Positions 4,361 through 27,085 of a stretch of DNA of 64,000 nt are shown one piece after another. The stretch's first letter is position 1, and every line of letters begins with the position of its first letter. The notes under the pieces were generated by a model. The model was not told the DNA's origin and searched no databases. It saw only the letters and a list, made by a program, of their open reading frames with translations. The stretch is from assembly GCA_964016885.1 (NCBI GenBank), contig OZ024741.1, positions 147,994,001-148,058,000 on the forward strand, written 5' to 3'. Position numbers and translations under genes: made by a program. Origin of the DNA: Eledone cirrhosa. Its lineage: Eukaryota.

Positions 4361-4588
4361 CTAAGGCCACCCTGACCACTAGCGCAAGCACCCTCTCTCT
4401 GTTCTCCCACTCCTCAGTCTACAGGCGCATATTCAGAACGGGCTCGTTCACTTGGACCAGATTCGCCACTTTCACCCGCCGTTCAACAAACTTAGTAGAA
4501 GACAGCTGTCCGTCTTCAATCCTTTCAACCTTGTCCACCATACAATCTCTTTCACCATGGCCACAAGGCAGAGGAAAACTGCCTGCAC
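4361..4588 (-). mobile_element. Tx1-clade 3'-end fragment fused to a CRE-like element
   Basis: AVFLCLVAMVKEIVWWTRLKGLKTD and SSTKFVER..VNEPVLNMRL match the ORF2 C-terminus of the Tx1 copy at 46743-52867. Confidence 0.8.
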
Positions 4589-6250
4589 TTGACCTGGAGG
4601 CCGATTCCGCCAGGGCAGGAACCACTGATTGAAGGTCATGGCAGACAGTCTCCACGGGCCTGCCCAGCGTAGCATCATCCAAGTACCAAAGGTTTAGAGG
4701 GGCTGTGTTACTCCGGGCAATGCGGTCTATACCAAGGGCAAACAGAAGGGGGCCCAAAGGTCGCCCTTTTGGACCCCAGCGGCCGAAGGTATGACCGTGT
4801 CAGCAGCAAGGAGCATGCTCGGGGCTCAATATGACAAGTAGGCCAGCGGGTAGTGGAGGGGGCTCGGCTGAGGCAGGCATCGAGTAGATGGTCCAGGCTT
4901 ATGCAGTTAAAGGCATTCCTCATGTCAAGCTTGACAATGAGGTGCCTGAAGTCCCTGGACCACGGTTCCGAGGGCAGCTATTGAAGAACTGGCTGGTTGC
5001 ATGTGCGGCCCCCTCATAGCCACCGGACACGCCGACACCCAGTTGCACCGGACTGAACTCCTCACCCAATTCAGGTGTTATGGACCTGCAGACCATCTTA
5101 GCAACCAGCGAAAGACATTGCCCACAGCGACGGGGCGTGTGCCAGCCTCTTTCTTCCTGAGAGCGGTCATCCTAGCCGAAAAAAAGAGGCCTCGGGCGTG
5201 AGGATCCAGGACGCCATGGATAGGTGAGTGCCACAATTTCACTCAGAAGGCGACGCCCGGCCTCAGCGGAGAGTGGGGATAGCAACTATTTGAGGTGGCC
5301 TGGTCGGAGACCAGCAGCGCCTTCCGCTGCCGCTAGCTGGGAAGGACTTGATTGCAGGCATGATGTCTGCGTCGGAAGCCACAAGGAGCAGGTGGGGATC
5401 CGGTGGGGGTATGGGTCTGAGGTCAGCGGGTGGCTCTGGGTGCTTGAGTCGGAGGGCAGCCAGGACCTCCTCGGTGGGTTGGAGGACAGTGTCCTCTGAG
5501 GCAACCACTCTCACTGCGGCCCAGACATCACCCTGTGGTCACGCAAACGCTTGGTGCTTGCCCAAAGGACGAAAGATTGGCCTTGACAAAGGGTGCTGTC
5601 GACAGGCCGCCTCGGTCAGCGCCAGAGCTGGGGAGGCCGAGGGCGAGTGGGACGAAATAGAATAGGCGCTCTCAGTCGCTGGCTCGATTGGAGTCCGGAG
5701 CACTCTCGATCGAGAAAGCAAGGGCATCACTACTGGCACCCGGGCCGCTCTCGAGATACTGAGCGGAATCTTCTGGAGCCGCCTGAGCCGAGCGATGTTG
5801 ACCAGCGAGGCTTGGACATCAGGTAAGCTCTCTGTCTCATCTGGTGGAGTGCCAGATGGCCGTGGCTGGACAGACGAGGGGACGAGACAGGTTCTGCAAC
5901 TCCACGCTGCGTGGGCACTGGAAGCCTGACGCGTCAAGCCAACACAGGTGAGGTCGTGGGAGCAGCCGCACCCCGAACAGTTCCGGCTTCTCTCCCGTCT
6001 TTTCGTGGTGCTGCAAGTGCTGCAGATGTCGACTGTTGCGGCTGGAGGATGGGGCGTGGAGCAGGGGACTGGGGCCCCAAGCAGCATCAAAGGTGAGTGG
6101 CTGGTTGTCACCAGCCTAGGTGCTAGGCACAACTGCACGTGGGTGGAAGGGAAAGTGTTGGTATGAGTGAGGCCTCATAGCTCACCTACATCAGATATGG
6201 AGGCGATAGAAGACAAGATAAAAGAGAAGGTGGGTACATGGAGGGGGACA
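4589..6250 (-). mobile_element. CRE-like RLE non-LTR retrotransposon family A, 5' half (PHD finger plus partial RT), degenerate
   Basis: C4-H-C3 PHD (CSTC..CSGC..HDLTC..WSCRTC). RT motifs QLGVGVSGG, VKLDMRNAFN, LGPLLF, WYLDD. Confidence 0.75.
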
Positions 6251-7019
6251 CACACGAAAGTAGAAAGTTAGCAAATAAATAAATGAAAGAATGGAGGGAT
6301 GTACAAAAAGAAAACAGGGGGTTGTTCCCAGCGGAAATACCGAAAGGTTGTTATTGTCACTGATGCTGGAGTTGGCTTCCTCTTGTTAATGGTGGTGGTA
6401 GTGACTGCTTGTAAGATGTTGGTGTATACACATATAGTTGTTGTTGTTGTCACTGCCACTACCGTATCCTTCCTCTTGTTAATGGTAGTGGTAGTTGATA
6501 CCGATACCTATTTCGGTTGCCCGGCTGGTTGCTGGGGTTCGAATGCCTTCTTTTACCCAAGATGCGGGGTCGTTGTTATTGTCACTGTTGCTGTCGATGC
6601 CTTCCTCTTGTTAATGGCAGTAATAATTGTTGGTGCTACCTATTTCGGCTGTCAAGCTGGCTGCTGAATCAGCTTCTGTTTACATTTTCGCATACATACG
6701 ATATTCTCAATGGACGCCCTTACAATATTTGAACATAACTGAACCGTCGTTGCCTTCCTCTTGGTAATAGTAGTGAAAATCCACCGGCAGACAATTATAT
6801 AAAAGAGTATATAGAAATAAAAACTAACATTTCTGTCTCGGATATAAATATTTGTTTACGTAGCGTTATTTACTGTCACTTTGAAAATATTGAAGTTAAT
6901 GAACTCTGTAAGTATCGTTGCTGGGAAGAAGTTAAAGAAACATATCAATATCATACAAATTCCTTAAATATTATCTAGATAGTGGGTTGTAGCGTTATTT
7001 ACTGTCTATTTGCTACTAA

Positions 7020-7735
7020 TTGAGCATGCCTTATATACACACTCTATCCATTCTTCGCCCCTTCCACACTTCAATCCTCATATTCTTCCCACACCATACC
7101 CCTTTCTACTTCTCCTTCACTCCATTCTCCTACACACCTACCAACCACCCCACACACTTTCCATTTTCAATTTTCCGCCTCCATCACCAACACCCTTGAA
7201 TTAAATGCCCGCCTCACCTCAGCCTTCCACCCTACAGGAAGTCAATCAGTGCCACTCGTGCTACACGCGCAACAGGCGCAAGAAAGGAAAGAACTGCTCC
7301 AACTGTAGCAGCTTTTTCCACCTCTCTTGCGTCAAACAGACCCGATGCGCGTTGGAATCCTTGCACCGGTGGCACTGCCCGCCATACCTATCCACCTGTC
7401 AGTTTCGACAGTGCCGGCTGGAACAGGCGAAGCTCCCAGTGAGGTTCGGTAGCCTCGGTTTCTGACCCGCTTCAGATCTGACTCTACCGGCCTATCTCTC
7501 CTCAATCTCCTCCAGTAGCGTTCTCGTCAGCGAAGTCCTCGGCCAGAGAGGTCGAACAAGACGTTGCTTGTCGCTGGCAATTGTCTGTGGGAAAGCTCTT
7601 GCGGTCTTGTCCGTGGGGCGCAACTCCAACACCGCCACGCCCTGCGCCCAGAGCCCATCATCTTCCTCTTCCCTCTTCCATTTTCTTTTACCCTAGAGCC
7701 CTTGCTTTTCCCTTCCTTTTCCGTTTTTAAATATT
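7020..7735 (+). mobile_element. Heavily internally deleted CRE-like element, family B
   Basis: PHD-like CHSC..CSNC..FHLSC..WHC joined directly to QAKLPVRFGSLG and the C-terminal RLE helix, followed by a pyrimidine-rich 3' UTR. Boundaries approximate. Confidence 0.6.
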
Positions 7736-7766
7736 CTAAAGTTATTTTCACTGAAGAAGAAAGTAA

Positions 7767-7887
7767 AAATAATTGTTTCTACTTTTGGCACAAGGCCAGC
7801 AATTACCCAGTACATTACTGGTACTTTATTTTATCGACCCCGTTAGGATGAAAGGCAAAGTTAACCTCGACTGGATTTGAACTCAGA
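7767..7887 (-). mobile_element. tRNA-derived SINE fragment
   Basis: B-box-like GAGTTCAAATCC on minus. Reverse-complement homolog at 42330-42420. Resembles cephalopod SINE cores (from memory). Confidence 0.6.
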
Positions 7888-8068
7888 CCAAAAAAAGTAA
7901 AAATAGTCATGTGTTAACTATATTGACGTAATCTGCGAGAGTAATGCGTAAAGTTTCAAACAGATTCTTTCATTAAAAAGTTGATACACAGCGTTCTCTA
8001 TTTGTGATTCAACCAGATATTTTCGAAGCTGCAAGAACTAATTCAAAAATTTGGAGAAAGAAAAAAAA

Positions 8069-9103
8069 ATGGATGAAAACCTTAATCCCCTCTACTGTGA
8101 TAAGAGATTAGAGGAGTTAAATGCTGGACATGTGAATGTTTTGTTTCCAGTATTAATGTATCTGGTAATTATTATGATGCTGGGATCAGTTGGAAATATC
8201 ATAGTAGCTTATATATACTATTTTAAATTTGAGAAAAATACCACAAATTTGTTCATTGTAGCGCTTTCGATGTGTGATTTTTTTACTTGTACAATATGCA
8301 TTACATCGGAAATTGTGTATCTACATTATTCATATACATTTTTCAGTAATGCTGCTTGCCGCCTCATGCGTTATACTGTTGGTCTAATGGTAATCACTTC
8401 AGCATTTATTGTATTGGTTATAGCACTTAATAGATACTCACTTGTGTGTCGACCTCTTAAAAAACAAATTTCTCAAAAGCAGTCAAAGATAATCATACTA
8501 TGTTTACCAATCCTCGCCGGTATAATGAACCTGCCAATACCTTTTACATACAGCGCACAAAATGTGGAGGTAACAGGCTGTGGAAATATTGGAAGTAGGT
8601 GTAGCCTCACTGACAATTTGCGCGGTTCACCCTTTGTAGTATTCTATTATGGTTTATTGTTGTTTATTTTTATTTCTCTGTTTGTTTTTCTCATGATAAT
8701 TTATATCATAATTTCAATACGTATTCAGACGTTTTCCATCAGGATGGAAAATAGAACCATAGAATCAGAAACTGAAAGTACTATTGCTTCTGGAACTAAT
8801 ACAGGTATTAAACGACTGAGGAAGCGTTCATTGAACCCATCTAAAACCAATAAACTTTTGTTCACCATCACTTTCATCTGGATTATGAGTTATTTACCTC
8901 ACCTATTTACCGCAATATTCTGGAAGAAGGACGAAAAAACTTTCATTGAGACCCAACCAGCTGAAGATATTGTAATTTATAGGTTATTAATGTATTCTGT
9001 TTACTTTAATTGTGCTTTAAACCCATTTTTTTATGGAATTTTTAATACGAGGTTTCGTAGTGAACTACTGCAAATATTACACGTTAATACATTAATAACA
9101 TAG
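8069..9103 (+). CDS. Intronless class A orphan GPCR, copy B (344 aa)
   Basis: First ATG at 8069 (track start at 8051 is TTG). Seven hydrophobic segments, TM1 GSVGN, TM2 LSMCD, ECL1/ECL2 Cys, NRY, NPFFY. Confidence 0.92.
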   Translation: MDENLNPLYCDKRLEELNAGHVNVLFPVLMYLVIIMMLGSVGNIIVAYIYYFKFEKNTTNLFIVALSMCDFFTCTICITSEIVYLHYSYTFFSNAACRLMRYTVGLMVITSAFIVLVIALNRYSLVCRPLKKQISQKQSKIIILCLPILAGIMNLPIPFTYSAQNVEVTGCGNIGSRCSLTDNLRGSPFVVFYYGLLLFIFISLFVFLMIIYIIISIRIQTFSIRMENRTIESETESTIASGTNTGIKRLRKRSLNPSKTNKLLFTITFIWIMSYLPHLFTAIFWKKDEKTFIETQPAEDIVIYRLLMYSVYFNCALNPFFYGIFNTRFRSELLQILHVNTLIT

Positions 9104-10227
9104 TGAATTTCTTGAAAATAACTACAAAAGATCTCAGAATGTACTGTAACAAAAGTAAGCAAAAAGGGTTGTTGGTTATATGAGAGAATGTATGAATTAC
9201 AAGTGAATTATGTAAGGTTAGTCTTCGAAAAAATTATAGAAAGAAAGAGTTGTGTATGAATGCGATGTGTGTGTGTTTTGTTCGTGTGTATGAATGCGAT
9301 GTGAGTGGGTTTTTTTTTTTTTTGCTTTTGTTTTTTCGTGTGTATGAATGCGAGACTAACGGAGGATACGGATGTTATCCTACCACCCTGCTCGATTGGC
9401 TTTACCCGTAAAATCTCTCCTGTAATTATTTCCTTAACTTTCTAACCACATTACCCAAATGGCAAATATCCTTTGGATGGTTGCTTGTTTCCTGCATTTG
9501 TACAAAGTCTGCACTGGCTAATTCCCAGGATACGCTATATCTAACATGAGCAGAATAACATCAAACAAAAGGGGAGTAAACTTGCCACAAACAAACAAAA
9601 CGTAAATATATACCCGTAAAATCTCAGGTTTTTCACACATCTATCTCGACAAACACTCGTAATAAGGAGCCAATGCAACATATGCTAAGATACTAGAAAA
9701 TGAAATCAACAATGAGAAGTAGTCTCTTCTGTATGAATGAGAGCTACTTTTCATCACATACATAGCCAGAAATTTACTACGGGTTGTAGTAAATTCTATT
9801 AAAAATATGTATCTGATATGATGAAGCAATAAAGAAGTTTTGATTTATTTTTCTAATGAAGAAAAAATCGGTTCGGTACAATGTTATTTTCACACTTGTC
9901 TTGTTGATTGGTTTTGTTAGAATTTTGAAGGTGAGATTTGCTTTTACTATGATTTAAAAAATGTAATTTATACGAATATGGACTTGAAAACCATCGTAAA
10001 TTATTCGTTTTCTGTGGTTTCACGTCGAAGAATTCCATCTAAGAGACGGTGTAATAATGAAGATTTGCCTAAAATCTTTCATTGCATTTGACAATTTTTG
10101 CGAGGAATTGCCAAAAGGTTTAAATATGTCCTATTTTAGCCATTGTGTTCTCATTGTTACTATATGTACATCAAATCTTCAATTATTTCTCAAATTATCA
10201 ATACAAGTGTTTTGCAAAACAAACTAT

Positions 10228-11215
10228 CATAAACCAATCTTCTCCAACCAGATCTACTCTCTGCCTCATCTTCCCAATCCTCAACACTAGTACTAAGTGT
10301 CTTCAGGGTGCCTTTGACAACATCCGTGAAACATTTCTTGGGTTTCTGTCTGGGACGTTGATCAAGAGTTCACCCTTCTTCGCTCACTTATTCCAACGGG
10401 TCCTGTCAGAAGCAACCGTTTCTAAATGATCTGGCTGGATCCCCAAGCGTGAGCAGCCAAGCTCATGGATGTTATCCAACCATCTTGCTCTGGATCTACC
10501 CCTGCGTAACCTGCCGATTGGTTTTGCCCGTAAAATCTGTCCAGCGAATCTTTCCTGAGACATTCTAACCACATGCCCATAGTATTGGAGCTGTGATCTC
10601 TCAATTCGGAGAAGTAGCAGTTCTACCTAGAGTGACTATCTGATTTCCGAGCTACGCACCCTATTGAGTAACTCCAAAGACCCTTCGGAGGAACCCCATT
10701 TCGGCTGTTTGGATTCACAATCGTATTCTTTCGGTCTTTGATTCTGAGCTGGATATTTGTGTTAAGAGAGGAGCTGAACTGTCAATCGATCACAATCTAG
10801 TTATCTACAACTTGAGACTAACTAAAGCCAAGGAAGCCCACAAACCTGCCAGGTCCAGGGCAACCGACAGGATAAAGTGGGAAGCGTTGGTGAATAAAGA
10901 TGTGAAGACCAGGTATGCAAATTCTATTGCATACAAATTCAGAGAATTCCCTGAGAAAACTGAGAATGTTGAGACAGATGTTGAGAGCACTACCGAGGTA
11001 GACAAATGTATCAACAACCTTCTACCTCTGACCCTGAACAAAGATGTTGGGCTCGGCGTAATGTTGCTCAGGAGGTGGGGTGTACAGGACCTTCGTCTTT
11101 TCTGTGTTGATAGAAAGCCCCAAAGCAGTCCATGCCCCAGGTCCATGATTGCCTGCAAGTCCTACTCGGTATAAGTAATAAGGTCTGCGCCATCATCATA
11201 GAGAAATTCTCTGAT
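10228..11215. mobile_element. RTE-clade LINE fragments (duplicate of 1866-2853)
   Basis: Same sequence at +8362. Confidence 0.7.
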
Positions 11216-11911
11216 CTGACACCTGATCAAATGCTCACCAGGCTGATCACATCACAGGGAAAATCTGGTATAGTTTGAGGCAGACACAGCTGGTTTCCTT
11301 TAATGTTACCTAACCTAGGGTCAGTGTTGGATTCATCACTTTGAGCTAGAGAAAAAGAGATAATCCATGCACTAGAAACACTCCTCCTCCACCTGCTCCA
11401 AAGAAGGCCAAGGTCGTTTCATCTGCAGAAAAGGTGAGGGCCCCACGATCAAAGGAGAGTATGATGCCAACTTGTTAAGGAAGTTACGAAAGGCTATCAA
11501 GACCAAATACCCAGGAAAACTAAAGAAAGGGGTCTTGTTTCAGCAAGACAATGCTCCAGCACACAAATCCTTGGTTTCAATGCTCTGCATGACTGTGGCT
11601 TTGAAGTAGTTGAACACCCTCCCTATTCTCCTTAGTTGTCCCCATCTGACTATAATCTGTTATCCAACATGAAACAACACTAGGCAGGGAACCAGTATTG
11701 CAGTGATGATGACATCAACATCATATTTGCTGTTGATGACTTTTTTTACCAACAGGATGAAAGCTTCTTCACTAATGGAATCCAAGCACTGCTACATTGA
11801 TGGAAGAGCAGTGTAGACCTCAAGGGAACTATTTTGAAAAATAAACCTTATTTGGTGATATTTTATGAGAGTGTCTTGGTTATCCTATGAACTGTTCACC
11901 TAACCCTCATA
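11216..11911 (+). mobile_element. Degenerate mariner 3' part (duplicate of 2854-3549)
   Basis: Same sequence at +8362. Confidence 0.75.
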
Positions 11912-12839
11912 ATATAGCAAAATTGCAAATGAAAATGAAATACATGGAGTGAGGGAGGTAAAAAGCATCCACCTTCCACTTCATCTAACCACGGCCAATG
12001 CAATTTTGTGCATAAACATGGTATTGCAGAACATTGAATCCAGGTTGTACAATAGCTTAGAACAAGCTGCCAGAAAGATGCATATACAACAATACAACAG
12101 TATAGATACAGGAGTCAACATGTGAGGGTCTTTTGACTAGGACAAAACGAGTTTGTAAACAAATTATAAAGTCTTACAACTGGAAATATGGCAGGATATG
12201 GTGCAAATTGTGCATATATATATTGATCAACAACATCATCTCACATCTATTTTCCATGCTTGCATAGATTAGAAGGGTTGTTACATTCTGAGACTAGGCA
12301 GGTCAGATAACTGTCTTACGCGTACACTCCATTTTGACATGGTTGCAATTCCTAATGCCAACCATTTCATGGCGTATGCATTTATACACACACATGTATG
12401 TATAATGGGCAGTCTCACATATATGCTGCAGAATACCTACCCTATCAATACTCATCCAACCCATGCAAGCATAGAAAAGCAACTGTAAAAAGGATGATGA
12501 AGGATAGTAAGAAAAATTACATTTTTCGGCAAAGTAGCCGTTAGCCTTTTGGGCTCCATGACAAGCTTCATACTCATCATGGGGTCCTTTTTGTTACCTT
12601 TCCTGGTACTGAACACAAGAAGTGGTTCAAGGTCATTTCTTCTGCAAAGCAGCTGTTAGCCTCTTGTGCCCCATGAGAGGCTTCATACCCATAGGGTCCT
12701 TTTTGATTGATACTCTTTCTGGTGCCAAACCTTTTCATCGTCTCTTAAGACATGATTATATGATTGTATGGTGGTGTGATAAGATGAAGGCCATGTAAAT
12801 GGATATATTTCATTTTTGTGCTCCTTTTTGTTTTGGTAG

Positions 12840-13011
12840 GAAAATATAAATCATTACAGACTGTTTATCGGGGTATGTAATGAAATACTTTCCACCAGCA
12901 AACTCAGTCATTCTTCGTCCATTGAGCCGAGTTCTGAATAAACTTGATCTAAATAAAGACAGGTTTACCATGTTAAAGGATCTACAAACATTAATGTCCC
13001 AAATTCTCTCG
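12840..13011 (+). pseudogene. Probable pseudo-exon of a condensin subunit CAP-G (NCAPG)-like gene
   Basis: Polypyrimidine+TAG acceptor (AG 12838-39) and GTGAGT donor (13012). With one frameshift it reads ENINHYRLFIGVCNEILS/PANSVILRPLSRVLNKLDLNKDRFTMLKDLQTLMSQILS, resembling the CAP-G C-terminal segment H.NL..KICNEIL..P...R...KAL..L.L....KDL..L...IL as I recall it. Confidence 0.55.
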
Positions 13012-13643
13012 GTGAGTACATTGTTTTTTCAATTCTTTTGTTGAAGGCATGAGGCCTTGTAGTTAGGGTGTTGAGCTCAAAATCATAAAAACATGGATTT
13101 GCTTCCTGGACCAAGTGACATATTCTTCAGCCATATACTTTATTTCCACATTGCTCCTTCTGCAATTAATATCAGCAATGGAAGAACTAATAGAAAAATT
13201 ATTTCTTTGGTCCAATTTAATGATTGGCTCTTTTCCTTTCATTGTCATATTTCTAATGAAAGACACCTCCTTTGATTTTGAAAATAATCAAGAATTTGGA
13301 GGGATTTAGTAATTATAATTGTCTCATTACTAATCTGGTGTTTGGAAACGAATATAACAATGGTTCTTTCATCATCATTTTATAGCTGTGTTTCATGCTG
13401 GCATGGGTTGAACAGGTTGTCACTGTTTGAGACTAGATGGGTCTGAGAAACCTCATCTTGCTCATATATTCCATATTTGGCATAGTTTCTATAGCTGGAT
13501 ACCCTTCCTGACATCAATCACCTTACAGAGTACACTGAGTGTATTTTATTGTTGCACCAGTAGTAAAATGTTATATGCTCAGCCAGACTGCAGTGTCCTC
13601 TCTACTCTATTTTGTCTCTGTTTGATCACTAATCACTTTACAG

Positions 13644-13834
13644 AGTTTACTGGGTAAATTTTAAGATGACTCTTATTTCCATTGGATTGACCAGTTGATG
13701 GAAGCAGTGTAATGTCCGAGAGTCAGACAGCTGTTGATGGAAGCAGTGTAATGTCCGAGAGCCGGATAATAGTTGATGGAAGCAGTGTAATGTCCGAGTG
13801 TGAAACTGCTGATGGACTACAAATGTAAATGAAG
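13644..13834 (+). pseudogene. Putative downstream pseudo-exon containing 3 units of the 39-bp repeat
   Basis: CTAAT branch-like site, TTTACAG acceptor and AG|GTAAGC donor. Repeat 13694-13816 encodes VDGSSVMSESQTA-like units. Paralog at 33222-37000. Confidence 0.45.
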
Positions 13835-14483
13835 GTAAGCTGATTGACATCTAATCAACTAAATCTGGTGATGAATACCATAACCTATTAGTTCTTTAAC
13901 CCATTTGTTACCATATTTCTTGTAGTGGTGGTGTGGGGCTTAGTGGTTTGGATGTTTGGTTCAGTCTTGTGTTCAATTCCTGGTGGTGCATTGTTCTTGA
14001 GCAGGACATTTCATGTTGTTCCAGTCTGCTCAGCTGCAAAAATTCAAAAGGCCCAGCCTTGACACACAGTGTCATGTTGAATTAGGTTATGGGTACACAT
14101 GTCTGCAGAATGTTCAGCCACTTGCATGTTAATTTCACGAACAGATGGCTCAATTGATCATGGAGTCTCAACACACGCTCACACCATCTTAACTATAATA
14201 GAGGAGTGCGGGACAGCATCCAGAATATATTTTTTATCCCGTTAGTAAAATAAGTTGGATTACTTTCAATAAATAATGAATGAATATTACATAATTTATG
14301 TACTAAATAACGTAACACATGATTAAAGATAAATAATGTTATTGCATATTTCAATATTCACTTCTTTTAAAAGATTCAAATTTCAATACATCCGGTATAT
14401 CACCACCACCATGTATATATAGTGAGAGAGAGAGAGACAGAGCGAGAAAGAAAGAGAATGTGTGTGAAGAGAGAGATACAAAG

Positions 14484-15292
14484 TGACTATTAGCAGCGGA
14501 AGTGGGTGTTCGGAAAGTACAATAACTAGGGTAAGATCGGGATGGAAGAAGTTTAGGGAGGTACTGCCACTGCTAGCTGCAAAAGGCTTTTCCCTCAAAA
14601 TGAAAGACAGACTGTATAATGCGTGCATATGAACAGCAATGTTACATGGAAGTGAGACCTGTGCGCTGTCTGTAGAAGACTTACGTAGATTAGAGAGAAA
14701 CGAAGCCTGCATGCTCCGATGGATGTGTAATAGTAATATACGCGAACGGCAAAGCATAAATGAATTGAGAGAGAGACTGAGCATAAGAGGAATCAAATGC
14801 TGTGTGCAGGAGAGGCGGTTGTGTTTGTATGGACATGTGAGGCGTATGAAGGATGACAGCTGCATAAAAAGGTGCAGAGCACTAGAAGTCGATGGAAGCC
14901 GCGAAGTGGGGAGACCCAAGAAGACCTGGGATGTGGTGATAAAAGCCGACCTTATCTAATTGCACCTCTCAAAGGCGATGACACAGGACCGTGACCTCTG
15001 GTGTCACACAGTAATACAGAAGACCCAACTTCCCATGGGTACAAGCTGAAGCTGAAGCATATAGACAATATGCCCCACACTCTCCCACTGCAAAGTGGTT
15101 GTGGAGGTGCCACGGAAAAAAGCACCCAGCACTCACTGTAAATGAGGTTGGTGTTAGGAAGGGCGTCCAGCCGTAGAAATCAAGCCAGAATCAGTTCCCA
15201 CATGAGCAAGACGAGGTCAGCCGACCGGACACTGCCCACAATAGGACAACCCGTCTAACCCATGCTAGCGTGGAATAATGGACGTAAAACGG

Positions 15293-15335
<43 letters not shown>
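14484..15335 (+). mobile_element. 5'-truncated RTE-clade LINE with (GAT)n tail
   Basis: RVRSGWKKFREVLPLL..MLHGSETCAL..MLRWMC..RRLCLYGHVRR..GRPKKTW. Ends in (GAT)n at 15293-15335. Confidence 0.85.
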
Positions 15336-15413
15336 ATAATTAGATAGTGAAATAGCTCTTACGCTGTTTGTAAACAAATTTAATTTTCAAACCAACGCTA
15401 AGCTATAAACCTT

Positions 15414-15421
<8 letters not shown>

Positions 15422-15494
<73 letters not shown>
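15422..15494. repeat. (TG)n microsatellite
   Basis: Uninterrupted TG run. Confidence 0.97.
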
Positions 15495-15496
<2 letters not shown>

Positions 15497-15779
15497 CGGA
15501 ATTCTTCTCTGTTTTACCTGGCGAACTTTCTCATTATTTAGTCGATGTTTGGAACATAACTTAAAAAATGTTCTTACATGGAATTATTACCAAAGTCATG
15601 TAGAGTGGGAATTCAAGAGTGATGACACTCTGGGGAAGAAACGTTGTGACTATTGGTTCAATGTGGGGCTTGAGACATTGGGCACAACATGGTCAATGGA
15701 AGGAGGAGAGACTAATGCAAGGCCAACCAGCTCTAAAGAGCAGATGCCATTGTAGAAGTGATAAAAAGGATAGAGAGCA

Positions 15780-16060
15780 GACAGTAATCTGTGAGCTAGA
15801 CTGAAGTATGTCCAGTGGCCTTTCAATGTGGTCTTGGATGCCTCCGTGTCTATATTAGCAGCAAAGTTGTAAAACTGGAAGTGTAATTCCATTGTGGGTC
15901 TCATCTGAGCATTGTAGACAGTCAGAAATTATTGGAAACTGAAGTATCTTCTGGCTCTGAAGAGAATGACCGGTCTTTATGTTGTTGTCTTTACTATGTT
16001 ATGGATGTGTGGTGATCGGGAGAGATCCTCACTGATAATAAGGCCTAGTATTTGGGGTGA
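15780..16060 (-). mobile_element. Old LINE RT C-terminal fragment (CR1/L2-like group)
   Basis: LGLIISEDLS...RARRYFS..LTVYNAQMRPTME. Confidence 0.45.
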
Positions 16061-17129
16061 ATGCGTTAATTTTTTAGTGGGGTGAAGTTTAATGTTTTCT
16101 TGTTATGTGTAATAAGTGTCTCTGGTTAGAGGATTTTTTCCTTCCACCCTCCCACCAGTCTCGGAGGCTCTGATAAAATAAAGGGTCATGGATCCTGCCT
16201 TTCTCTCCTTGACTAAACAATAAAAAAATTCGTTGACATTAGGAAGTTCTTTTAGCTGTAGAAACTATGCCAAATATGGAGCATATAAACAAGACGTGGC
16301 TATCTGACCTGCTGTCCATGACAATGACCATAAAAATCATGTGATAGCCCTTAACTTTTCCTGCCTTTTTCTTATTCTGGTTATGTTTCGAGAACATTCA
16401 TCATCATTTAACATCCGTTTCCCCAGCTAGCAAAGGTTTGATGGGTTGTCACAGTCCAAGTCAGTACTTAATCAGAGCCACTGATTTCTCAGATGGGCCA
16501 GGGCCTCATTTTGCTTAAATACATTCCTGCACTCTACATTCTGATATATTTTGTTTGTTTCAGAGACTGAAGCTGAATGATCAATACCAACAACTCCATC
16601 CAATCAAGTTTCTTAACCTCCAACTGCTCATAACTGAAGTAGAATGTCACTTGCTGTCATATTATAACCTATCAATTTATCATCATCATCGCTTTTACGT
16701 CCGTTTTTCCACTCTTGCATGGGTTGGATGGGTCCTTTTTAGCACTTGTTGCGTTCCTTCCACATATCCTCTGTGAGTTTCAACATTTGAGATCAGCACT
16801 CATCACCTCAACCCAGGTCATCCCTGGTCTTCTACTGTGGCTTACTTCTATTGGGATGCAAATGTAGAAAAGTTAATGTAAAAACAATGATGATGATGAG
16901 TCGATAGCTTATAATATGACTGCAAGTAATATTCTAGGTAGCAGAAGCTCTCAACTACTTTTATGGATCCTTCATATGATAGGACAAGGTTTATATCACT
17001 GACACTCTACCCCTGTGCATCTATTACATGTAATGCACACATTTGCATTGTGTACATCTTATAGAGTTTCCGCTGACTCCTTTTCTGTGTATAGAACAGG
17101 CCCATTTATTGATGGGATCAGGATCGTGT

Positions 17130-17480
17130 CTTATTTCTTATTTACTAACACTTGAGTTTTTTCTAGGCTTACTCTCAGCCCTTTTGATTCTGTTTCCACA
17201 TTTAGAACTTCTTCATCTGTTGTTCTCCACCCTGGAATAAAATGAAACTGCATTTCATCTAATTTTAACTCTTTCCCTAATTAGATACTCTAAACCTCTT
17301 TCTGTCACTTTTATAACTTGGTCCATTAGTTTTATGGATCCGAAGTTACTCCTTTTCAGGGCATAATTTTATCCATTGTAACAATTAATGGGTATACTGC
17401 TGTGCCAATTATTGAGTATGACCTCATCCTGTATTATATCATTGACTATGCAGTTGACAAGTTTGTTTCCTACTTCCTTT
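17130..17480 (-). mobile_element. Old RTE-like RT fragment
   Basis: Degenerate LVNCIV..W.SS.PI.CY.G...SNF.SIKLMDQVIKVTER..IRERVKI. Confidence 0.45.
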
Positions 17481-18561
17481 CATTTTCAACATCTCTGTAA
17501 CTGCATCTGGTGGTCCAGTGGCTTTCCCATTCTTATTCTCCTTGATTACATTTTGTCTCTATAACTGTTGATTTCAATAGCTGGTCCCTCTTCGGTGTTG
17601 GCTGGGGGTAGTCTCTCTTCCTCCCATTTATTCTCCACATTCATCAGCCTTTCAAAGTATCATTTCCAGGCACTTTTTTTGAGCATCAGTGGTGCTAAGT
17701 GCACCAGTGTCATTTCTAACACACTGTTCCCCAACAACATCCCTATTCACAATGCTTTGCAATGCAGAACGCTTTATGTCTCTGATCCTCACGTTACAAG
17801 ACATTGACAAACCTCCTTTCATCCTCTTTCCATGCTATGTATACTTGTCTAGCTTCTCTCTTAATTACCTGGTACTGGTCTCTGCTACCCTTATTTTTCC
17901 TGTCTTTCCATGCCTGTCTCTTGACTTTAATTACTCTATACACTGTGCTGCCACCAGCAGGGCAAGCTCTGTCTGGCTGGTGCTTTCCTCAATGTCAGAA
18001 AAAAAACTAATTCTTGAATCAAGCTTTTTTTCATAACACCAACTAGTGTTTCAACAAAAACAAATATTTAAAAAATAAGTTTGTTAATTCAAATATATAT
18101 ACTATCTTTACTGGTGGACATATTTTTGTGAAAATGTGCAGTATTAGTTAGTGTAAACACTTGAATTTTTAATGTGATGCACTCAGTGTTGTTTTGTTCT
18201 TTTCAAAACTCTTGCTAATACATTTCATGTGGTAAAAGATATTAAGGGATGATATATTCACCAGCATTTGTTTTCTTTTTCAAACCAGATTTTAATAAGG
18301 TAGACTATAGAGCTGATCATTCATATTTCCAGTTTCAAATCCTGTTAAATATTATGTATTTTTATTTATTTTGTTACACTTGTGAAATCTCGTTTAAAGA
18401 ATGACTTTGAGAATAATCAGGATTTTGGACAGATTTAGAAATGCAACTTTCTGGTTATTTATCTGCTATTTAGAACATAACTTAACAAAAGTTCTTGCAT
18501 AAAATTACAATGGTTAGATTTTACATAAATATAAACACCTTTATAGCCAGGGTCAGTTTCA

Positions 18562-18844
18562 GGGGGGGGGGGGGGTCACCTCCGAGGTTGACTCGTGGTG
18601 AAAACCACACAAAAGACTAAGGCCACCCTGACCACTAGCGCAAGCACCCTCTCTCTGTTCTCCCACTCCTCAGTCTACAGGCGCATATGCAGAACGGGCT
18701 CGTTCACTTGGACCAGATTCGCCACTTTCACCCGCCGTTCAACAAACTTAGTAGAAGACAGCTGTCCGTCTTCAATCCTTTCAACCTTGTCCACCATACA
18801 ATCTCTTTCACCATGGCCACAAGGCAGAGGAAAACTGCCTGCAC
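18562..18844 (-). mobile_element. Tx1-clade 3' fragment including part of the 3' UTR; paralog of 4361-4588
   Basis: Matches the Tx1-B 3' UTR and ORF2 end at ~46930-47280. Confidence 0.8.
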
Positions 18845-20110
18845 TTGACCTGGAGGCCGATTCCGCCAGGGCAGGAACCACTGATTGAAGGTCATGGCAG
18901 ACAGTCTCCACGGGCCTGCCCAGCGTAGCATCATCCAAGTACCAAAGGTTTAGAGGGGCTGTGTTACTCCGGGCAATGCGGTCTATACCAAGGGCAAACA
19001 GGAGGGGGCCCAAAGGTCGCCCTGTTGGACCCCAGCAGCCGAAGGTATGACCGTGTCAGCAGCAAGGAGCATGCTCGGGGCTCAACATGACAAGCACTCA
19101 GAAGGCGACGCCCGGCCTCAGTGAAGAGTGGGGATAGCAACTCTTTGAGGTGGTCTGGTCGAAGACCATCAGCACCTCCGCTGCCGCTAGCTGGGAAGGA
19201 CTTGATTGCAGACATGATGTCTGCGTCGGAAGCCAGGTGTGGATCCAGTGGGGATATGGGTCTGAGGTCAGCGGGTGGCCCAGGGTGCTTCAGTCGCAGG
19301 GAAGCCAGGACCTCCTCGGTGGGTTGGTAGACAGTGTCCTCTGAGGCTACCACTCTCATTGCGGCCCAGACATCACCCTGATAAGTTTAGCGTTTACGTG
19401 GTCACGCAAACGCTCGGCGCTTGCCCAAAGGACGAAAGATTGGCCTTGACAAAGGGTGCTGTCGACAGGCCGCCTCGGTCAGCGCCAGAGCTGGGGAGGC
19501 CGAGGGTGAGTGGGGCGAAATAGAAGAGGTGAGCCCAGTCGCTGGCTCGATTGGAGTCCAGAGCACTCTCGATCGAGGAAGCGAGGGCATCACTACCCGG
19601 GCCGCTCTCGGGATCCTGAGCGGAATCTTCTGGAGCCGCCTGAGCCGAGCGATGTTGACCAGCGAGGCTTGGACATCAGGTAAGCTCTCCGTCTCATCTG
19701 GTGGAGTGCCAGACCGCCGTGGCTGGACAGACGAGGGGAAGAGACAGTTTCTGCAACTCCACGATGCGTGGGCACTGGAAGCCTGACGCGTCAAGCCAAC
19801 ACATGTGAGGTGGTGGAAGCAGCCGCACCCCGAACAGTTGCGGCCTCTCTCCCGTCTGTTCGTGGTGCTGCAAGTGCTGCAGATGTCGACTGTTGCGGCT
19901 GGAGGATGGGGCGTGGAGCAGGGGACTGGGGCACCAAGCAGCATCAGGGGTGACTGGCTGGTTGTCACCAGCCTAGGTGCTAGGCACAACTGCACATGGG
20001 TGAAAGGGAAAGTGTTGGTATGAGTGAGGCCGCATAACTCACCTACATCAGATATGGAGGCGATAGAAGACAAGATAAAAGAGAAGGGTGGTACATGGAG
20101 GGGGACACAC
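18845..20110 (-). mobile_element. CRE-like family A 5' half; paralog of 4589-6250
   Basis: PHD finger CSTC..CSGC..HHLTC..WSCRNC, SGGADGLRPDHLK, WYLDD. Different internal deletion from the 4.6-6.2 kb copy. Confidence 0.75.
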
Positions 20111-20875
20111 ACAAAAGTAGAAAGTTAGCAAATAAATAAATGAAAGAATGGAGGAATGTACAAAAAGAAAACAGGGGTTGTTCCCAGCGGAAATACCGAA
20201 AGGTTGTTATTGTCACTGATGCTGGAGTTGGCTTCCTCTTGTTAATGGTGGTGGTAGTGATTGCTTGTAAGATGTTGGTGTATACACATATAGTTGTTGT
20301 TGTTGTCACTGCCACTATCGTATCCTTCCTCTTGTTAATGGTAGTGGTAGTTGATACCGATACCTATTTCGGTTGCCCGGCTGGTTGCTGGGGTTCGAAT
20401 ACCTTCTTTCACCCAAGATGCGGGGTCGTTGTTATTGTCACTATTGCTGTCGTTGCCTGCCTCTCGTTAATGGCAGTAATAATTGTTGGTGCTACCTATT
20501 TCGGCTGTCAAGCTGGCTGCTGAATCAGCTTCTGTTTACATTTTCGCATACATACGATATTCTCAATGGACGCCCTTACAATATTTGAACATAACTGAAC
20601 CGTCGTTGCCTTCCTCTTGGTAATAGTAGTGAAAATCCACCGGCAGACAATTATATAAAAGAGTATATAGAAATAAAAACTAACATTTCTGTCTGGGATA
20701 TAAATATTTGTTTACATAGCGTTATTTACTGTCACTTTGAAAATATTGAAGTTAATGAACTCTGTAAGTATCGTTGCTGGGAAGAAGTTAAAGAAACATA
20801 TCAATGTCATACAAATTCCTTAAATATTATCTAGATAGTGGGTTGTAGCGTTATTTACTGTCTATTTGCTACTAA

Positions 20876-21610
20876 TTGAGCATGCCTTATCTACACACTC
20901 TATCCATTCTTCGCCCCTTCCACACTTCAATCCTCATATTCTTCCCACATCATACCCCTTTCTACTTCTCCTTCACTCCATTCTCCTACACACCTACCAA
21001 CCACCCCACACACTTTCCATTTTCAATTTTCCGCCTCCATCCTCAACACCCCTGAATTAAATGCCCGCCTCTCCTCAGCCTTCCACCCTACGGGAAGTCA
21101 ATCAGTGCCACTCGTGCTATACGCGCAACTGGCGCAAGAAAGGAAAGCTTTTTCCACCTCTTGCGTCAAACTCACCCGATGCGCGTTGGAATCCTTGCAC
21201 CGGTGGCACTGCCCGCCATACCTATCCACCTGTCAGTTTCGACAGTGCCGGCTGGCAACAGGCGAAGCTCCCAGTGAGGTTCGGTAGCCTCGGTTTCTGA
21301 CCCGCTTCAGATCCGACTCTACCGGCCTATCTCTCCTCAATCTCCTCCGGTAGCGTTCTCGTCAGCGAGGTCCTCGGCCAGAGAGGTCGAACATGACGTT
21401 GCCCGTCTGAGGAAGGAGCCCCGCGAGTTGGGGTGGCTGTTGCAGCGAGTGTCGCTGGCAATTGCTTGTAGAAAAGCTCATGCGGTCTTGTCCGTGGGGC
21501 GCAGCTCCAACACCGCCACGCCCTAGGCCCAGAGCCCATCATTTTCCTCTTCTCTTCCATTTTCTTTTACCCTAGAAGCCCTTGCTTTTCCCTTCCTTTT
21601 CCGTTTTTAA
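20876..21610 (+). mobile_element. Internally deleted CRE-like family B; paralog of 7020-7735
   Basis: WQQAKLPVRFGSLG and C-terminal LQRVSLAIA motif. Boundaries approximate. Confidence 0.6.
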
Positions 21611-21856
21611 ATATTGATAAAGTTATTTTCACTGAAAAAAAAAGTAAAAATAATTGTTTCTACTTTAGGCACAAGGCCAGCAAATTAAAAATAATAATGT
21701 GTTAACTATATTGACGTAATCTGCGAGAGTAATGCGTAAGATTTCAAACAGATTCTTTCACTAAAAAGTTGATACACAGCGTTCTCTATTTGTGATTCAA
21801 CCAGATATTTTCGAAGCTGCAAGAACTAATTCAAAAATTTGAAAGAAAGAAAAAAA

Positions 21857-22867
21857 ATGGATGAAAAACATCACTTCCGCTGTGATAGAACTTTACAGAG
21901 GTTAAATGCTGAACAGGTGAATGTTTTGTTTCCAGTAATAATGTATCTGACAATTATTATGACGTTCGGATCAGTCGGAAATCTCTTAGTAGCTTATATA
22001 TACTATTATAAATTAGACAAAACTACCACAAATGTGTTCATTGTAGCGCTTTCGATGTGCGATTTTTTTACTTGTACAATATGCATTCCAATGGAAATTA
22101 CGATTTTACATTATTCACACAACTTTTTCAGTGATCATGCTTGCCGTTTCATGCGTTTTATTGTTAGTGTAATAATTGTCACTTCAGCATTTATTGTTTT
22201 CGTTATAGCAGTTGATAGATACTCACGTGTGTGTCGACCTCTTGAAACACATATTTCTCGTAAGCAATCAAAGATAATCATATTATGTGTACCAATCGTC
22301 GCCGGCACAGTGAACCTGCCAATAATGTTTATATACGGCGCACAAAAACTGAATATAATCGACTGTGGATATATTGGAAGAACGTGTGCATTTTCTGAGA
22401 CTTTGCGCGGTACAACCTATGTAGTACTCTATTATGCTATAATGTTGTTTATTTTTATGTCTCTGTTTATTTTTATCATGATACTTTATATCATAATTGC
22501 AATACGTATTCAAAAAATTTCCAATAGACGCCTGGGAGAATCTAAAAGTGTTTGTAATAGTACAGGTATTAGACGACAGAAGAAACATTTATTGAACCCA
22601 TCTAAAACCAATAAACTTTTGTTCACCATCACTTTCATCTGGATTAGCAGTTATTTACCTCATCTATTTACCGCAATATTCTGGAGGGTGAACGAAACAA
22701 CTAGTATTAACACCGAACCAGCTGAAAAAATTGTAATTCATATGTTATTAATGTTTTCTTTTTACTTTAATTGTGCTATAAACCCATTTTTTTATGGAAT
22801 TTTTTGTAAGAGGTTTCGTGTTGAACTACGAGGTTTGTTTTACGCTATCCCAACAATAACAGAGTGA
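21857..22867 (+). CDS. Intronless class A orphan GPCR, copy C (336 aa), diverged paralog
   Basis: ATG at 21857. Seven TM, canonical DRY (22214-22222), NPFFY. Roughly two-thirds amino acid identity to copy B by eye. Confidence 0.92.
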   Translation: MDEKHHFRCDRTLQRLNAEQVNVLFPVIMYLTIIMTFGSVGNLLVAYIYYYKLDKTTTNVFIVALSMCDFFTCTICIPMEITILHYSHNFFSDHACRFMRFIVSVIIVTSAFIVFVIAVDRYSRVCRPLETHISRKQSKIIILCVPIVAGTVNLPIMFIYGAQKLNIIDCGYIGRTCAFSETLRGTTYVVLYYAIMLFIFMSLFIFIMILYIIIAIRIQKISNRRLGESKSVCNSTGIRRQKKHLLNPSKTNKLLFTITFIWISSYLPHLFTAIFWRVNETTSINTEPAEKIVIHMLLMFSFYFNCAINPFFYGIFCKRFRVELRGLFYAIPTITE

Positions 22868-23158
22868 ATTTCTTGAAAATAAATACAAAAGTACGGAATT
22901 CTTAACTTTACAGATCTCACCAATTTGACGATTATAGAATATCTAGCTCGTACATTGAATCAAATACTAAACTTTGTTGGTTCTTTAAGCGAGATGTTTG
23001 CAAGCAATATGTAAAGATATCGTTGGCAAACGACACTTGGTTATAATATACTTTAACAAAAGTAATCAAAAAAGGTTGTAGGTTATATGAGAGAATGTAT
23101 GAATTACAAGTGAATTATGTAAGGATAGTCTTTGGAAAAATTATAGAAAGAAAGAGTT

Positions 23159-23310
23159 GTGTATGGATGCGATGTGCGTGTGTTTTGTTCGTGTGTATGG
23201 ATGCGATGTGCGTGTATTTTGTTCGTGTGTATGGATGCGATATGCATGTGTTTTGTTCGTGTGTATGGATGCGATGTGCGTGTATTTTGTTCATGCGATG
23301 TGCGTGTCTT
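23159..23310. repeat. 34-bp minisatellite, about 4 copies plus partials (about 2 copies in units A and B)
   Basis: gtatggatgcgat recurs at 23161, 23195, 23229 and 23263. Paralogous units at 892 and 926. Confidence 0.85.
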
Positions 23311-23885
23311 TTATTTGTTTTGTTTTTCGTGTGTATGAATGCGAGACTAGCGGAGGATACGGATGTTATCCTACCACCCTGCTCGATTGGCTTTACCCGT
23401 AAAATCTCTCCTGTGATTATTTCCTTAACTTTCTAACCACATTACCCAAATGGCAAATATCCTTTGGATGGTTGCTTGCTTTCTGCATTTGTACAAAGTC
23501 TGCACTGGGTAATTCCCAGGATACGCTATATCTAACATGAGCAGAATAACATCAAACAAAAGGCAGTAAACTTGTCACAAACAAACAAAACGTAAATATA
23601 TACCCGTAAAATCTCAGTCTTTTCATACATCTATCTCGACGAACACTCGGAATAAGGAGACAATGCAACATATGCTAAGATACTAGAAAATGAAATCAAC
23701 ATTAAGAAGTAGTCTCTTCTGTATGACTGAGAGCTACTTCTCATCATATACATAGCCAGAAATTTACTACGGGTTGTAGTAAATTCTATTAAAAATATGT
23801 ATCTAATATGATGACGCAATAAAGAAGTTTTGATTTATTTTTCTAATGAAAAAAAATCGGTTCGGTACAATGTTATTTTCACACT

Positions 23886-25263
23886 GTATAAAGAATTTAC
23901 AAATTTTTATTATACAGAGCATATAAATAAATTTACAGTAGAACAACATAACAAATATGTTTTAAATAATTACATAAATAACATTACAATTGCTTAGATA
24001 ACATTATAAATTGCTCGCGATTCTTTCAGAAAGATATATTCTTTTAATGTTACAATATTAAAGAAAATGTAAAGGAAGAGGTGAACACCCGAGCCAACAC
24101 CAGAGCAAAAGACAGCAACGTCGCGAGGAGTACCGGGCAACCTCTCTAATGATTTTTGAAGCAAGCCAGCACACTCGCAGCGTTGGCTCGGGTGAGGGCG
24201 AAGCTAATGCGCTGGAATAATCAAGCGCCCTTGCGAGATTCGCCAGTTACCTCTATTAGGCGGGCCGCCGGTGAAGAGAGGAACCTCGCAGTCAGCGGCC
24301 CGATTCACTCAAATGTCTCGAAAGCCACAAGGTAGTCGAAGCGTTGGAGTCAGATACTGAAGCTTAGAAATAGACAGGTAGTTCCTGAGTATGAAGAAAC
24401 CTTGATGGGGTTCGATAACTTCAATATTCTTCAGCAGCTGCTCAAGGCCAACCATCTTCGATTGGAAGGTTGACTCGAAGGCCAGGTCTGTGATTGGGGC
24501 TCCTAAGGAGCACCAAGTCGACGGGGGAGAGACCGCGATGGAAGGGAAGGACTCTGCAAACAAGTCGATTAGCTGTTGGTGTTGAGAAGCCGGGTGGTTG
24601 AGGATCCAGAGCTCACATTTGGAGCTATTGACCTGGAGCTCCGGCAGCCAAGCTCCTAAACCATTTTGTTGGCAGTGATGAGAACCATATCCGGAGTTCC
24701 CCCCAAGCAAGCGTTGTCGAGGTACCAGACATTGAGGTTCAACTCAACTCCCATCTTGGTGACGTCATCAATGCCCAGTGCAAACAGAGCGGGCCCGAGT
24801 TGGTCACCCTGTTGGACTCCTGTGGCAGAGGTGATGATTTGGTTACCGAAAGAATAGGTAGGAGCGCTCCCGATAAGCCTGCCATGCAAAGTGGTAGAGT
24901 TGTGGGACCCTCTCTCTTACTGAGCCGAGGACGACATCGCGGCTGACGGTGTTAAAAGCGTTCCTGAGGTCAAGTTTGACGTTGAGGTTGAGGGACGAGG
25001 AGGGCAAGTTGCTAACGGCTCTGGTAGTGTGGACAGCAGCCTCACATCCCAACTTGGTACCCACCCCCAGCTGGATGGGGGAAAATTCCTCCTCCAGTGA
25101 GTCGGAGACCAACAGCAAACACGCCTTTGCAGTGAGGCGGCGAAGGGTGCAGCCAACCGCAATGTGGCGCAGGTCTCCGTTGGGCTTGGTGAAACCAAAT
25201 AGCTTCGCACCGAAGAACAGTGGGCGGATGAACGAGAGAACGTTCTCTGAAAAGAACTGATTC
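23886..25263 (-). mobile_element. CRE-like RLE retrotransposon family C, 5'-truncated and internally deleted
   Basis: QLGVGTKLGCEAAVH, VKLDLRNAFN, GVQQGDQLGPALF, WYLDN, LFQRISFALTRANAASVL, AT-rich 3' UTR. Empty site in unit A at ~1534 (cacact|tgtcttg). Confidence 0.8.
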
Positions 25264-25689
25264 GTCTTGTTGATAGGTTTTGTTAGAATTTTGAAGGTGA
25301 AATTTGCTTTTACTATGAGTTTAGAAAATGTGATTTATACGAATATGGACTTGAAATCCATCGGAAATTATTCGTTTTCTGTGGTTTCACATCCAAGAAT
25401 TCCATCTTAGAGACGGTGAAGATTTGCCTAAAATCTTTCATTCCATTTGACAATTTTTGCCAAAAGGTCTAAATGTGTTCTGAAGAGTAACGTATTTTAG
25501 CCATTGTGTTGTCGTTGTTACTATATTTACATCAAATCTTTAATTATTTCTCAAATTATCAATTCAACAAGCGTTTTGAAAAACAGTAAATGATTACTTT
25601 TCTGAAGGTTAAAAATCATTTTGAAAGAATGAAAACAATTTATGACAAAGAATTGAATGTTCCATCCTTTTGACCTCAAAAGTCGCAAC

Positions 25690-27085
25690 CATCATAAACC
25701 AGTCTTCTCCAACCAGATCTACTCTCTGCCTCATCTTCCCAATCCTCAACACTGGTACTAAGTGTCTTCAGGTTGCCTTTGACAACATCCATGAAACATT
25801 TCTTGGGTTTCTGTCTGGGGCGTTGATCAAGAGTTCACCCTTCTTCGCTCACTTATTCCAACGGGTCCTGTCAGAAGCAACCGTTTCTAAATGATCTGGC
25901 TAGATCCCCAAGCGAGAGCAGCCAAGCTCATGGATGTTATCCAACCATCTTGCTCGGGATCTACCCCTGGGTAACCTGCCGATTGGTTTTGCCCGTAAAA
26001 TCTGTCCAGCGAATCTTTCCTGAGACATTCTAACCACATGCCCATAGTATTGGAGCTGTGATCTCTCAATTCGGAGAAGTAGCAGTTCTACCTGGAGTGA
26101 CTATCTGATTTCCGAGCTACGCACCCTATTGAGTAACTCCAAAGACCCTTCGGAGGAACCCCATTTCGGCTGTTTGGATTCACAATCGTATTCTTTCGGT
26201 CTTTGATTCTGAGCTGGGTATTTGTGTTAAGAGAGGAGCTGAACTGTCAATCGATCACAATCTAGTTATCTGCAACTTGAGACTAACTAAAGCCAAGGAA
26301 GCCCACAAACCTGCCAGGTCCAGGGCAACCAACAGGATAAAGTGGGAAGCGTTGGTGAATAAAGATGTGAAGACCAGGTATGCAAATTCTATTGCATACA
26401 AATTCAGAGAATTCCCTGAGAAAACTGAGAATGTTGAGACAGATGTTGAGAGCACTACCGAGGTAGACAAATGTATCAACAACCTTCTACCTCTGACCCT
26501 GAACAAAGATGTTGGGCTCGGCGTAATGTTGCTCAGGAGGTGGTGTGTACAGGACCTTGGTCTTTTCTGTGTTGATAGAAAGCCCCAAAGCAGTCCATGC
26601 CCCAGGTCCATGATTGCCTGCAAGTCCTACTCGGTATGAGTAATAAGGTGTGCATCATCAGCATAGAGGAACTCTCTGATGAGAGACTGGAAAGTCTGCC
26701 AAGGTGAAAACCCTAACCGCGGTCCTGAAACACAGATACACACCAACATTGCAATTCTGAAACGCATACGTGAGAGTCACTGCAAAGAATATAGAGAACA
26801 GAGTTGGTGCTAGGATGTTCCCTTGCTTAACTCCATTGTCGATGGAAATGGGTTCAGGCAGAGAACCATTGAAATTAAGCCTCTCTTTCATACTTCAATG
26901 TAGCTGTTTGAACAAACTCATGAAACCTGGAGGGCATCCCACCTTACCAAGAATGGTAAGGTCAACAAAGCCTTGCGAAGTTCTAGACATTTCTCCTGCA
27001 GCTGGCGAAGTTCAGGTCTGTTGTTCCCCTGCTCGAGCTAAAGCAACATTGTGTCTCTGGAATCACTCAAGGGCAAATCGCCTTG
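25690..27085. mobile_element. RTE-clade LINE fragments; longer paralog of 1866-2853
   Basis: Adds NGVKQGNILAPTLFSIFF and FLYADD on minus. Confidence 0.75.

Follow-up and report, generated by a model that had tools for sequence, protein, structure and literature searches.

The closest described relatives of the genes reported here are the group 2 G-protein-coupled receptors (GPCRs) of Octopus bimaculoides, which belong to a class A expansion specific to cephalopods. For these, the portions of the Ritschard et al. (2019) study covered here (PMC6408891) already put in print the family expansion, a testis bias in group 2 and branch-level positive selection in groups 1-3, with individual sites not identifiable. 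Tandem, species-specific class A expansions with variable outer halves of the transmembrane helices (TMs) have also been described in lophotrochozoans and interpreted as chemosensory (Nath et al. 2025, PMC11886862, as covered). We analysed a 64,000-nucleotide stretch of Eledone cirrhosa contig OZ024741.1 (hereafter the window), which carries two diverged copies, A (g14A) and B (g15B), of a tandem class A receptor cluster. Replacement changes in these genes have accumulated at 3-5 times the rate of their flanks and silent changes at the flank rate, while the open frames have been kept. The cluster is under diversifying selection.

A search of the animal's own genome (3.0 Gb) returned 84 matches, the top 14 of which lie inside C2:147.74-148.10 Mb. 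The 464 kb around the window hold 13 full-length frames (12 of them intact, since g08 loses the TM7 end), two frameshifted copies, one insertion-split copy and three fragments. The cluster itself, with genes labelled g01-g16 in this analysis, spans ~350 kb and comprises 12 intact and 4 broken genes. Its copies arose when whole units of gene plus flanks, at least 8 kb long, were duplicated; they are tandem and lineage-specific, and one-to-one orthologues were not found in Octopus (36-46% identity). The four near-complete broken copies have no internal in-frame stop and retain the coding signal (101 replacement versus 5 silent codons against g01). They are unusable as a neutral control, because their breakage is recent and they still carry the signal of selection. 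An inverted duplication of ~19 kb with 99.4-99.7% identity (C2:147.78-147.82 Mb; L060, L031-L033) includes two frameshifted receptor copies.

By their sequence features, A and B are class A (rhodopsin-like) GPCRs. Both exceed the curated PF00001 cut-off of 30.5 bits (93 and 112.5 bits for the two copies), and the class A signature N43, D70, C97, R122, P277, N318-P319 and Y322 is invariant or nearly so across 113 sequences (positions checked: N1.50, D2.50, R3.50, C3.25, P6.50 and NPxxY). Seven long helices appear in a low-confidence structural model (predicted local distance difference test, pLDDT, 58). The DRY motif reads NRY in A and DRY in B. At codon 121 of A (window 8429-8431), NRY replaces DRY in g10-g14A and ARY replaces it in g16; in other GPCRs, basal activity can shift when the DRY site changes.

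The sequence-only reading had claimed, from hand counts, that A and B diverge far faster in coding sequence than in flanking DNA. Recounting reproduced its figures exactly: 32 of 240 nucleotides differ between 8132-8371 and 21917-22156 (20 of 80 codons with a replacement, 4 purely synonymous), 3 of 141 differ between 7910-8050 and 21698-21838, and both frames are open throughout (Table 1). It overlooked a third copy, g13. The 20:4 count alone is no proof of selection because about four-fifths of sites are non-synonymous: the Nei-Gojobori estimate of the non-synonymous rate divided by the synonymous one (dN/dS) is 1.05 for those 80 codons and 1.65 for the whole coding sequence (CDS). Nor is the 141-bp upstream stretch special when set against the remaining flank (p=0.49).

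The full comparison carries the claim. Over the whole CDS, A and B differ at 182 of 1005 nucleotides (77, 58 and 47 by codon position), and in their collinear flanks 222 of the 6258 sites compared are different (3.5%). Second codon positions (43/297) are far above the flank level (p=9e-14), while fourfold sites (4/72) match it (p=0.33). In 200-bp bins, divergence runs at 1-8% upstream and steps to 13-20% inside the CDS, in line with the pattern first noticed; the bin spanning the stop and the first 165 bp of the 3' flank is also 14% diverged. A neutral simulation calibrated on the flanks (9 pairs, 1000 runs, 18 settings including GC and CpG bias) predicts that A and B should have ~22 codons with replacements and ~7 silent ones among 297, against 98 and 10 counted. 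In 8 of 9 pairs, replacements reach 3.2-4.7 times expectation and exceed the maximum of the 1000 runs. For silent codons, 17 of the 18 settings fall inside the 95% range, the one outlier being g11/B. Without selection, ~18 nonsense changes would be expected on the tree; none occurs in the 11 frames analysed, though these were picked as intact.

Codon models point the same way. The data set comprised 11 genes, with g08 left out and g13 excluded from all tests, and 297 of 369 codon columns, after removal of intracellular loop 3, the C-terminal tail and gapped columns. We used our own codon-likelihood code, and site posteriors are naive empirical Bayes rather than the Bayes empirical Bayes of PAML. 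Of the 55 gene pairs, 54 have a dN/dS above 1 and 43 reach p<0.05 (uncorrected, and the pairs are not independent). The A/B pair has a maximum-likelihood (ML) value of 1.75 (p=0.026), which becomes 2.27 (p=0.008) once the model permits double and triple changes. A single ratio for the tree is 2.16 (likelihood ratio 49.8 against 1). M8 is preferred to M7 by a 2dL of 151.6, and M2a to M1a by 151.5 (113.6 with multi-hit codons), with 38% of sites at dN/dS ~4.4-4.6. The excess holds for TM1-TM7 alone (2.32), for both gene halves (1.92 and 3.18) and on 18 of 19 branches; freeing the ratio on every branch gains only ~9 log units over one ratio. Diversifying selection, as the sequence-only reading had proposed for this tandem class A cluster, is thus strongly supported by dN/dS, site models and flank calibration.

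Could the pattern have arisen without positive selection, either from old coding regions with converted flanks or from relaxed constraint combined with mutational bias? Several observations lean this way. The ML dS for A versus B (0.12, or 0.08 with multiple hits) is above the flank divergence of 0.036; a pairwise homoplasy index (PHI)-type test gives a weak recombination signal (p=0.012); one pair, g05/g07, is neutral (27 replacement codons versus 27.8 expected, 1.0 times); and replacements are the only changes in two very young control pairs from other parts of the genome as well (3:0 and 22:0). However, homogenised flanks predict silent sites that are more diverged than the flanks, and counted silent differences match the flanks in four pairs: besides A/B, fourfold differences are 1/82 in g10/g11, 3/87 in g01/g04 and 5/99 in g05/g07, with flanks at 2.7, 3.4 and 4.5%. 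Gene conversion of the flanks, the alternative raised at the outset, is rejected on this basis: instead of dN/dS below 1 with dS far above the flanks, we found dN/dS above 1 with counted silent differences at flank level. Relaxed constraint, for its part, cannot exceed the neutral rate, and replacements run at several times that rate even under GC or CpG bias. The pairwise tests need no tree, and in an identity-run test of all 55 pairs none survives correction (best raw p 0.0025). Twelve older paralogue pairs run through the same code have dN/dS of 0.16-0.88, although several sit at the branch-length cap and they are not age-matched. An origin without positive selection is therefore very improbable.

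A young related GPCR pair of 366 amino acids, L074/L075 (C24:6.66 and 6.67 Mb), differs at 22 codons, all by replacement and spread over residues 131-342. Judged by its sequence, it may be another locus under selection within the wider family.

Where the selected sites fall was assessed on motif-anchored numbering, which is approximate in TM4 and TM5. One model puts 41 sites above a posterior of 0.95 and the other 66, with 35 shared by both. The selected sites include 6 of 28 positions in extracellular loop 2 (ECL2), 5 of 9 in ECL3 and 6 of 11 in helix 8; outer TM halves hold 11 of 96 (four atop TM5) and inner halves 4 of 111 (p=0.034), with 3 more in the N-terminus and inner loops. Mapping variable sites on a seven-TM scheme had been suggested by the sequence-only reading, and it gave a divided answer: selected sites lean to the outer side when helix 8 is omitted (23/160 extracellular versus 6/126 intracellular, p=0.009), and this enrichment is gone when helix 8 is included (p=0.15).

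Within this variation, E81, R101, Y193, Y275, H278, M308 and Y312 are unchanged in the 11 genes. In an alignment of the wider family, these seven putative pocket-core residues are invariant in the 10 cluster genes present, and three of them, E81, R101 and Y193, are the most frequent residues across the family at large too. This suggests a constant anchor (E2.61, R3.29, Y5.39, Y6.48, H6.51, M7.39 and Y7.43) surrounded by a variable rim, a reading made on approximate numbering and not from a trusted structure. The ligand is probably a peptide, because (i) an ECL2 hairpin is predicted in the model, (ii) C97 and C178, whose TM3-ECL2 bond is deduced from the residues themselves, are invariant in 113 sequences and (iii) the nearest solved structures by sequence are peptide receptors, namely those for orexin, CCK and NPFF (7sr8, 7mby and 9jg0; best E 1e-30). 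Octopus matches are far stronger (1e-147), and a CCK receptor from fish and a QRFP-like one from an arthropod fall outside on long branches in a tree that sampled part of the neuropeptide receptors. The automatic names of the relatives (orexin, vasotocin, ghrelin and nematocin) conflict and so carry no information on the ligand.

The top database match is O. bimaculoides A0A0L8HTK0 (41% identity). The cluster forms one clade of 12 rows (support 99/99), and a clade uniting it with group 2 genes A0A0L8HTK0, HZ00 and HTP1 has support 97/100 (100 in a second tree). A reverse search with A0A0L8HZ00 places cluster genes among its top 12 matches. These sequence relationships establish the cluster as orthologous to O. 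bimaculoides group 2; we are less sure that it is sister to all Octopus group 2 genes. Also, a GPCR at C2:149.01 Mb, 0.9 Mb from the cluster, is 80% identical to A0A0L8HTH5, a broadly expressed gene on Scaffold14030 lying 0.5 Mb from the clustered genes there (PMC6408891, table portion covered). This indicates that the two loci correspond, on one anchor gene only, and the neighbour at 80% versus cluster genes at ~41% marks the cluster as fast-moving. At C2:371.9-372.05 Mb, a second, older group consists of three related genes (L020, L029 and L081), one of which groups with A0A0L8HZ00 on a long branch; this locus may match O. bimaculoides Scaffold11985.

Expression of the relatives is available as proportions, not absolute levels. 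Four group 2 genes are clustered on Scaffold14030 (A0A0L8HTK0, HTN7, HTN0 and HTP1), three of which are 94-99.7% testis, with A0A0L8HTK0 at 99.6% (table S2), while A0A0L8HZ00, on another scaffold in the same clade, is 99.99% testis; in one part of the table, 5 of 9 group 2 rows are at least 94% testis (PMC6408891, as covered). Testis expression in E. cirrhosa is what these relatives suggest.

The sequence-only reading had favoured a chemosensory or recognition family. Under a chemosensory account, the copies would be peripheral or pheromone receptors located in sucker, skin or olfactory organ and diversified to sense different chemicals from outside. The lophotrochozoan expansions have been read in this way, selected sites lean extracellular, and group 2 genes A0A0L8FRL7 and A0A0L8HTP1 are expressed in retina, sucker and skin (65, 18 and 16%, with 0% testis, for the latter; PMC6408891, as covered), which makes a sensory role possible. 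Against this, three of the four clustered Scaffold14030 genes are overwhelmingly testis-expressed, testis expression on both scaffolds of the clade would be the likelier ancestral state, the solved structures closest in sequence are those of the orexin, NPFF and CCK receptors, and the expansions of Nath et al. lack the TM3-ECL2 disulphide (PMC11886862, as covered) while both cysteines are invariant here. We consider peripheral chemosensation unlikely. The chemosensory label is unsupported, given closest characterised relatives that are mostly testis-specific and retained peptide-receptor features; 'recognition family' is a fair description.

The best explanation, to which we assign a probability of about 0.55, is a young lineage-specific cluster of likely male germ-line or testis peptide receptors whose outer surface would be chasing a fast-evolving reproductive ligand. 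Unequal crossing-over in a retroelement-rich region would copy gene-plus-flank units, a step suggested by the head-to-tail arrangement of the duplicates. Selection would then fix changes on the outer surface of new copies, whose frame and core would stay intact, so that a constant anchor is combined with a variable rim (ECL2, outer TM5 and ECL3) that sets specificity. The driver would be sperm competition or female choice. Since both O. bimaculoides scaffolds of the clade carry testis-expressed genes, a male-reproductive role is the likeliest. Octopuses are polyandrous and store sperm, and female-released peptides influence sperm chemotaxis (PMC6712556, in the part covered), which makes a ligand-receptor race under post-mating selection the best reading.

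Several results weigh against this explanation, in addition to the weak recombination signal and the neutral g05/g07 pair. The conserved site class holds only ~10% of sites, which implies that constraint is weak overall. The extracellular enrichment is lost with helix 8, positions that we take to form the classical pocket show no excess of selection over the remaining outer TM sites (p=0.87), and the structure prediction is of low confidence. Identity between cluster genes and A0A0L8HZ00 reaches only 36-46%, and A0A0L8HTP1 is the one non-testis gene among the three O. bimaculoides genes placeable in the sister clade, which indicates that tissue can switch inside the clade. The newest changes may be damage: g12 is 98% identical to A, all six differences are replacements, and one of them removes the near-invariant P79, codon 79 of A (window 8303-8305) encoding Thr in A and g13 where at least 90% of 113 relatives have Pro.

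Another kind of arms race is conceivable, though we hold it to be doubtful: the driver might be a parasite or pathogen that binds the receptors, or conflict between alleles in the testis germ line, with no female ligand. A dN/dS above 2, together with selected sites in helix 8 and inner TM halves, is broader than ligand tuning needs, and copies continue to be born and to die. Direct evidence of an antagonist is absent, however, and the putative pocket core is kept. A more specific version of the post-mating explanation, which we put forward only tentatively, is that these are sperm-surface receptors for attractant or storage peptides of the female tract, with one ligand variant per copy and turnover of both sequence and copy number driven by sperm competition and cryptic female choice.

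Coordinates of the receptor copies and their flanks are collected in Table 1.

Table 1. Receptor copies, duplicated stretch and compared flanks in the window.
Feature	Position	Strand	Remark
Copy A (g14A), single-exon CDS	8069..9103	+	344-aa class A GPCR; PF00001 E 2.8e-26
Copy B (g15B), single-exon CDS	21857..22867	+	336-aa class A GPCR; PF00001 E 3.1e-32
Third copy (g13), 3' part only	1..741	+	protein identical to A
Head-to-tail duplicate, 8,361 bp	4361..12721	.	of the stretch ending at 4359; carries copy A
A upstream flank	5240..8068	+	collinear with 19095-21856; 104/2836 compared sites differ; neutral yardstick
B upstream flank	19095..21856	+	collinear with A upstream flank
A downstream flank	9104..12706	+	block-collinear with 23045-28901; 118/3422 compared sites differ
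B downstream flank	22868..28901	+	insertions relative to A

The start of g13 lies 293 bases before the window. Window positions 1-4359 are identical to 8363-12721, and the one mismatch in the 8,361-bp duplicate is located outside the window; the duplicate either arose very recently or is a product of the assembly. Contigs from three sequencing runs of one sample span both genes, with 565 bp of B without difference. A-type contigs are 3.5-6.5 times deeper than the B-specific contig, and this fits several A-like copies, contig depth not being a copy number.

Upstream of A, a short high-copy interspersed repeat (7740-7890) is missing from B and reaches enormous depth in four sequencing runs. A 39-bp tandem repeat of 94.6 copies (33272-36961) is open for 1234 codons on the + strand (13-amino-acid unit) and 1263 on the - strand. 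It is probably a minisatellite, because its variation is mostly non-synonymous, and composition probably accounts for its match to Pfam Lysostaphin_N; at 13692-13798 there is a version of 2.7 copies. Several LINE (long interspersed nuclear element)-type retroelement copies and fragments occupy 38337-63972, including an endonuclease (55045-56619, - strand) and a reverse transcriptase (62314-63972, + strand).

Compared with the Scaffold14030 cluster, the E. cirrhosa locus shares the clade, the neighbouring gene and the tandem layout. By contrast, the expansion is independent and much younger (silent divergence of a few percent to ~25%), whole-gene dN/dS exceeds 2, and 35 sites pass 0.95 under two models. 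Relative to the lophotrochozoan expansions, the differences are the invariant TM3-ECL2 cysteines and the mostly testis-specific relatives; the terms 'codeml', 'nonsynonymous', 'testis' and 'testes' were not found in the part of that text covered (PMC11886862). Orexin, CCK and NPFF receptors share the predicted ECL2 hairpin and are much weaker matches than the octopus genes.

Abalone lysin and sea-urchin bindin are gamete-recognition proteins under strong selection, with whole-gene dN/dS above 1. The present cluster shares with them that ratio and, presumably, a male-reproductive setting. They are, however, secreted or surface adhesion proteins present in one or a few copies, and the comparison is made across species, whereas the E. 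cirrhosa genes form a signalling receptor family that diversifies between copies. Chemoreceptor families usually average dN/dS well below 1, and a whole-gene value above 2 is extreme. The median gene dN/dS between two sibling Octopus species is 0.28 (PMC13669787, as covered). The young expansion, effect size and site map were not found in the literature searched, nor was any paper on this cluster or on a group 2 ligand; that search covered few subscription papers, and the supplement of PMC13669787 may list these genes.

The 12 young natural variants, with 35 candidate specificity sites around a constant core, provide a ready set for ligand finding. How female peptides bias octopus fertilisation is posed as an open question in PMC6712556 (part covered), and the cluster genes are receptor candidates for it. 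If they do prove to be sperm-surface receptors, lysin or bindin would have a counterpart among GPCRs, and biased fertilisation and gametic isolation in octopods could be approached at the molecular level.

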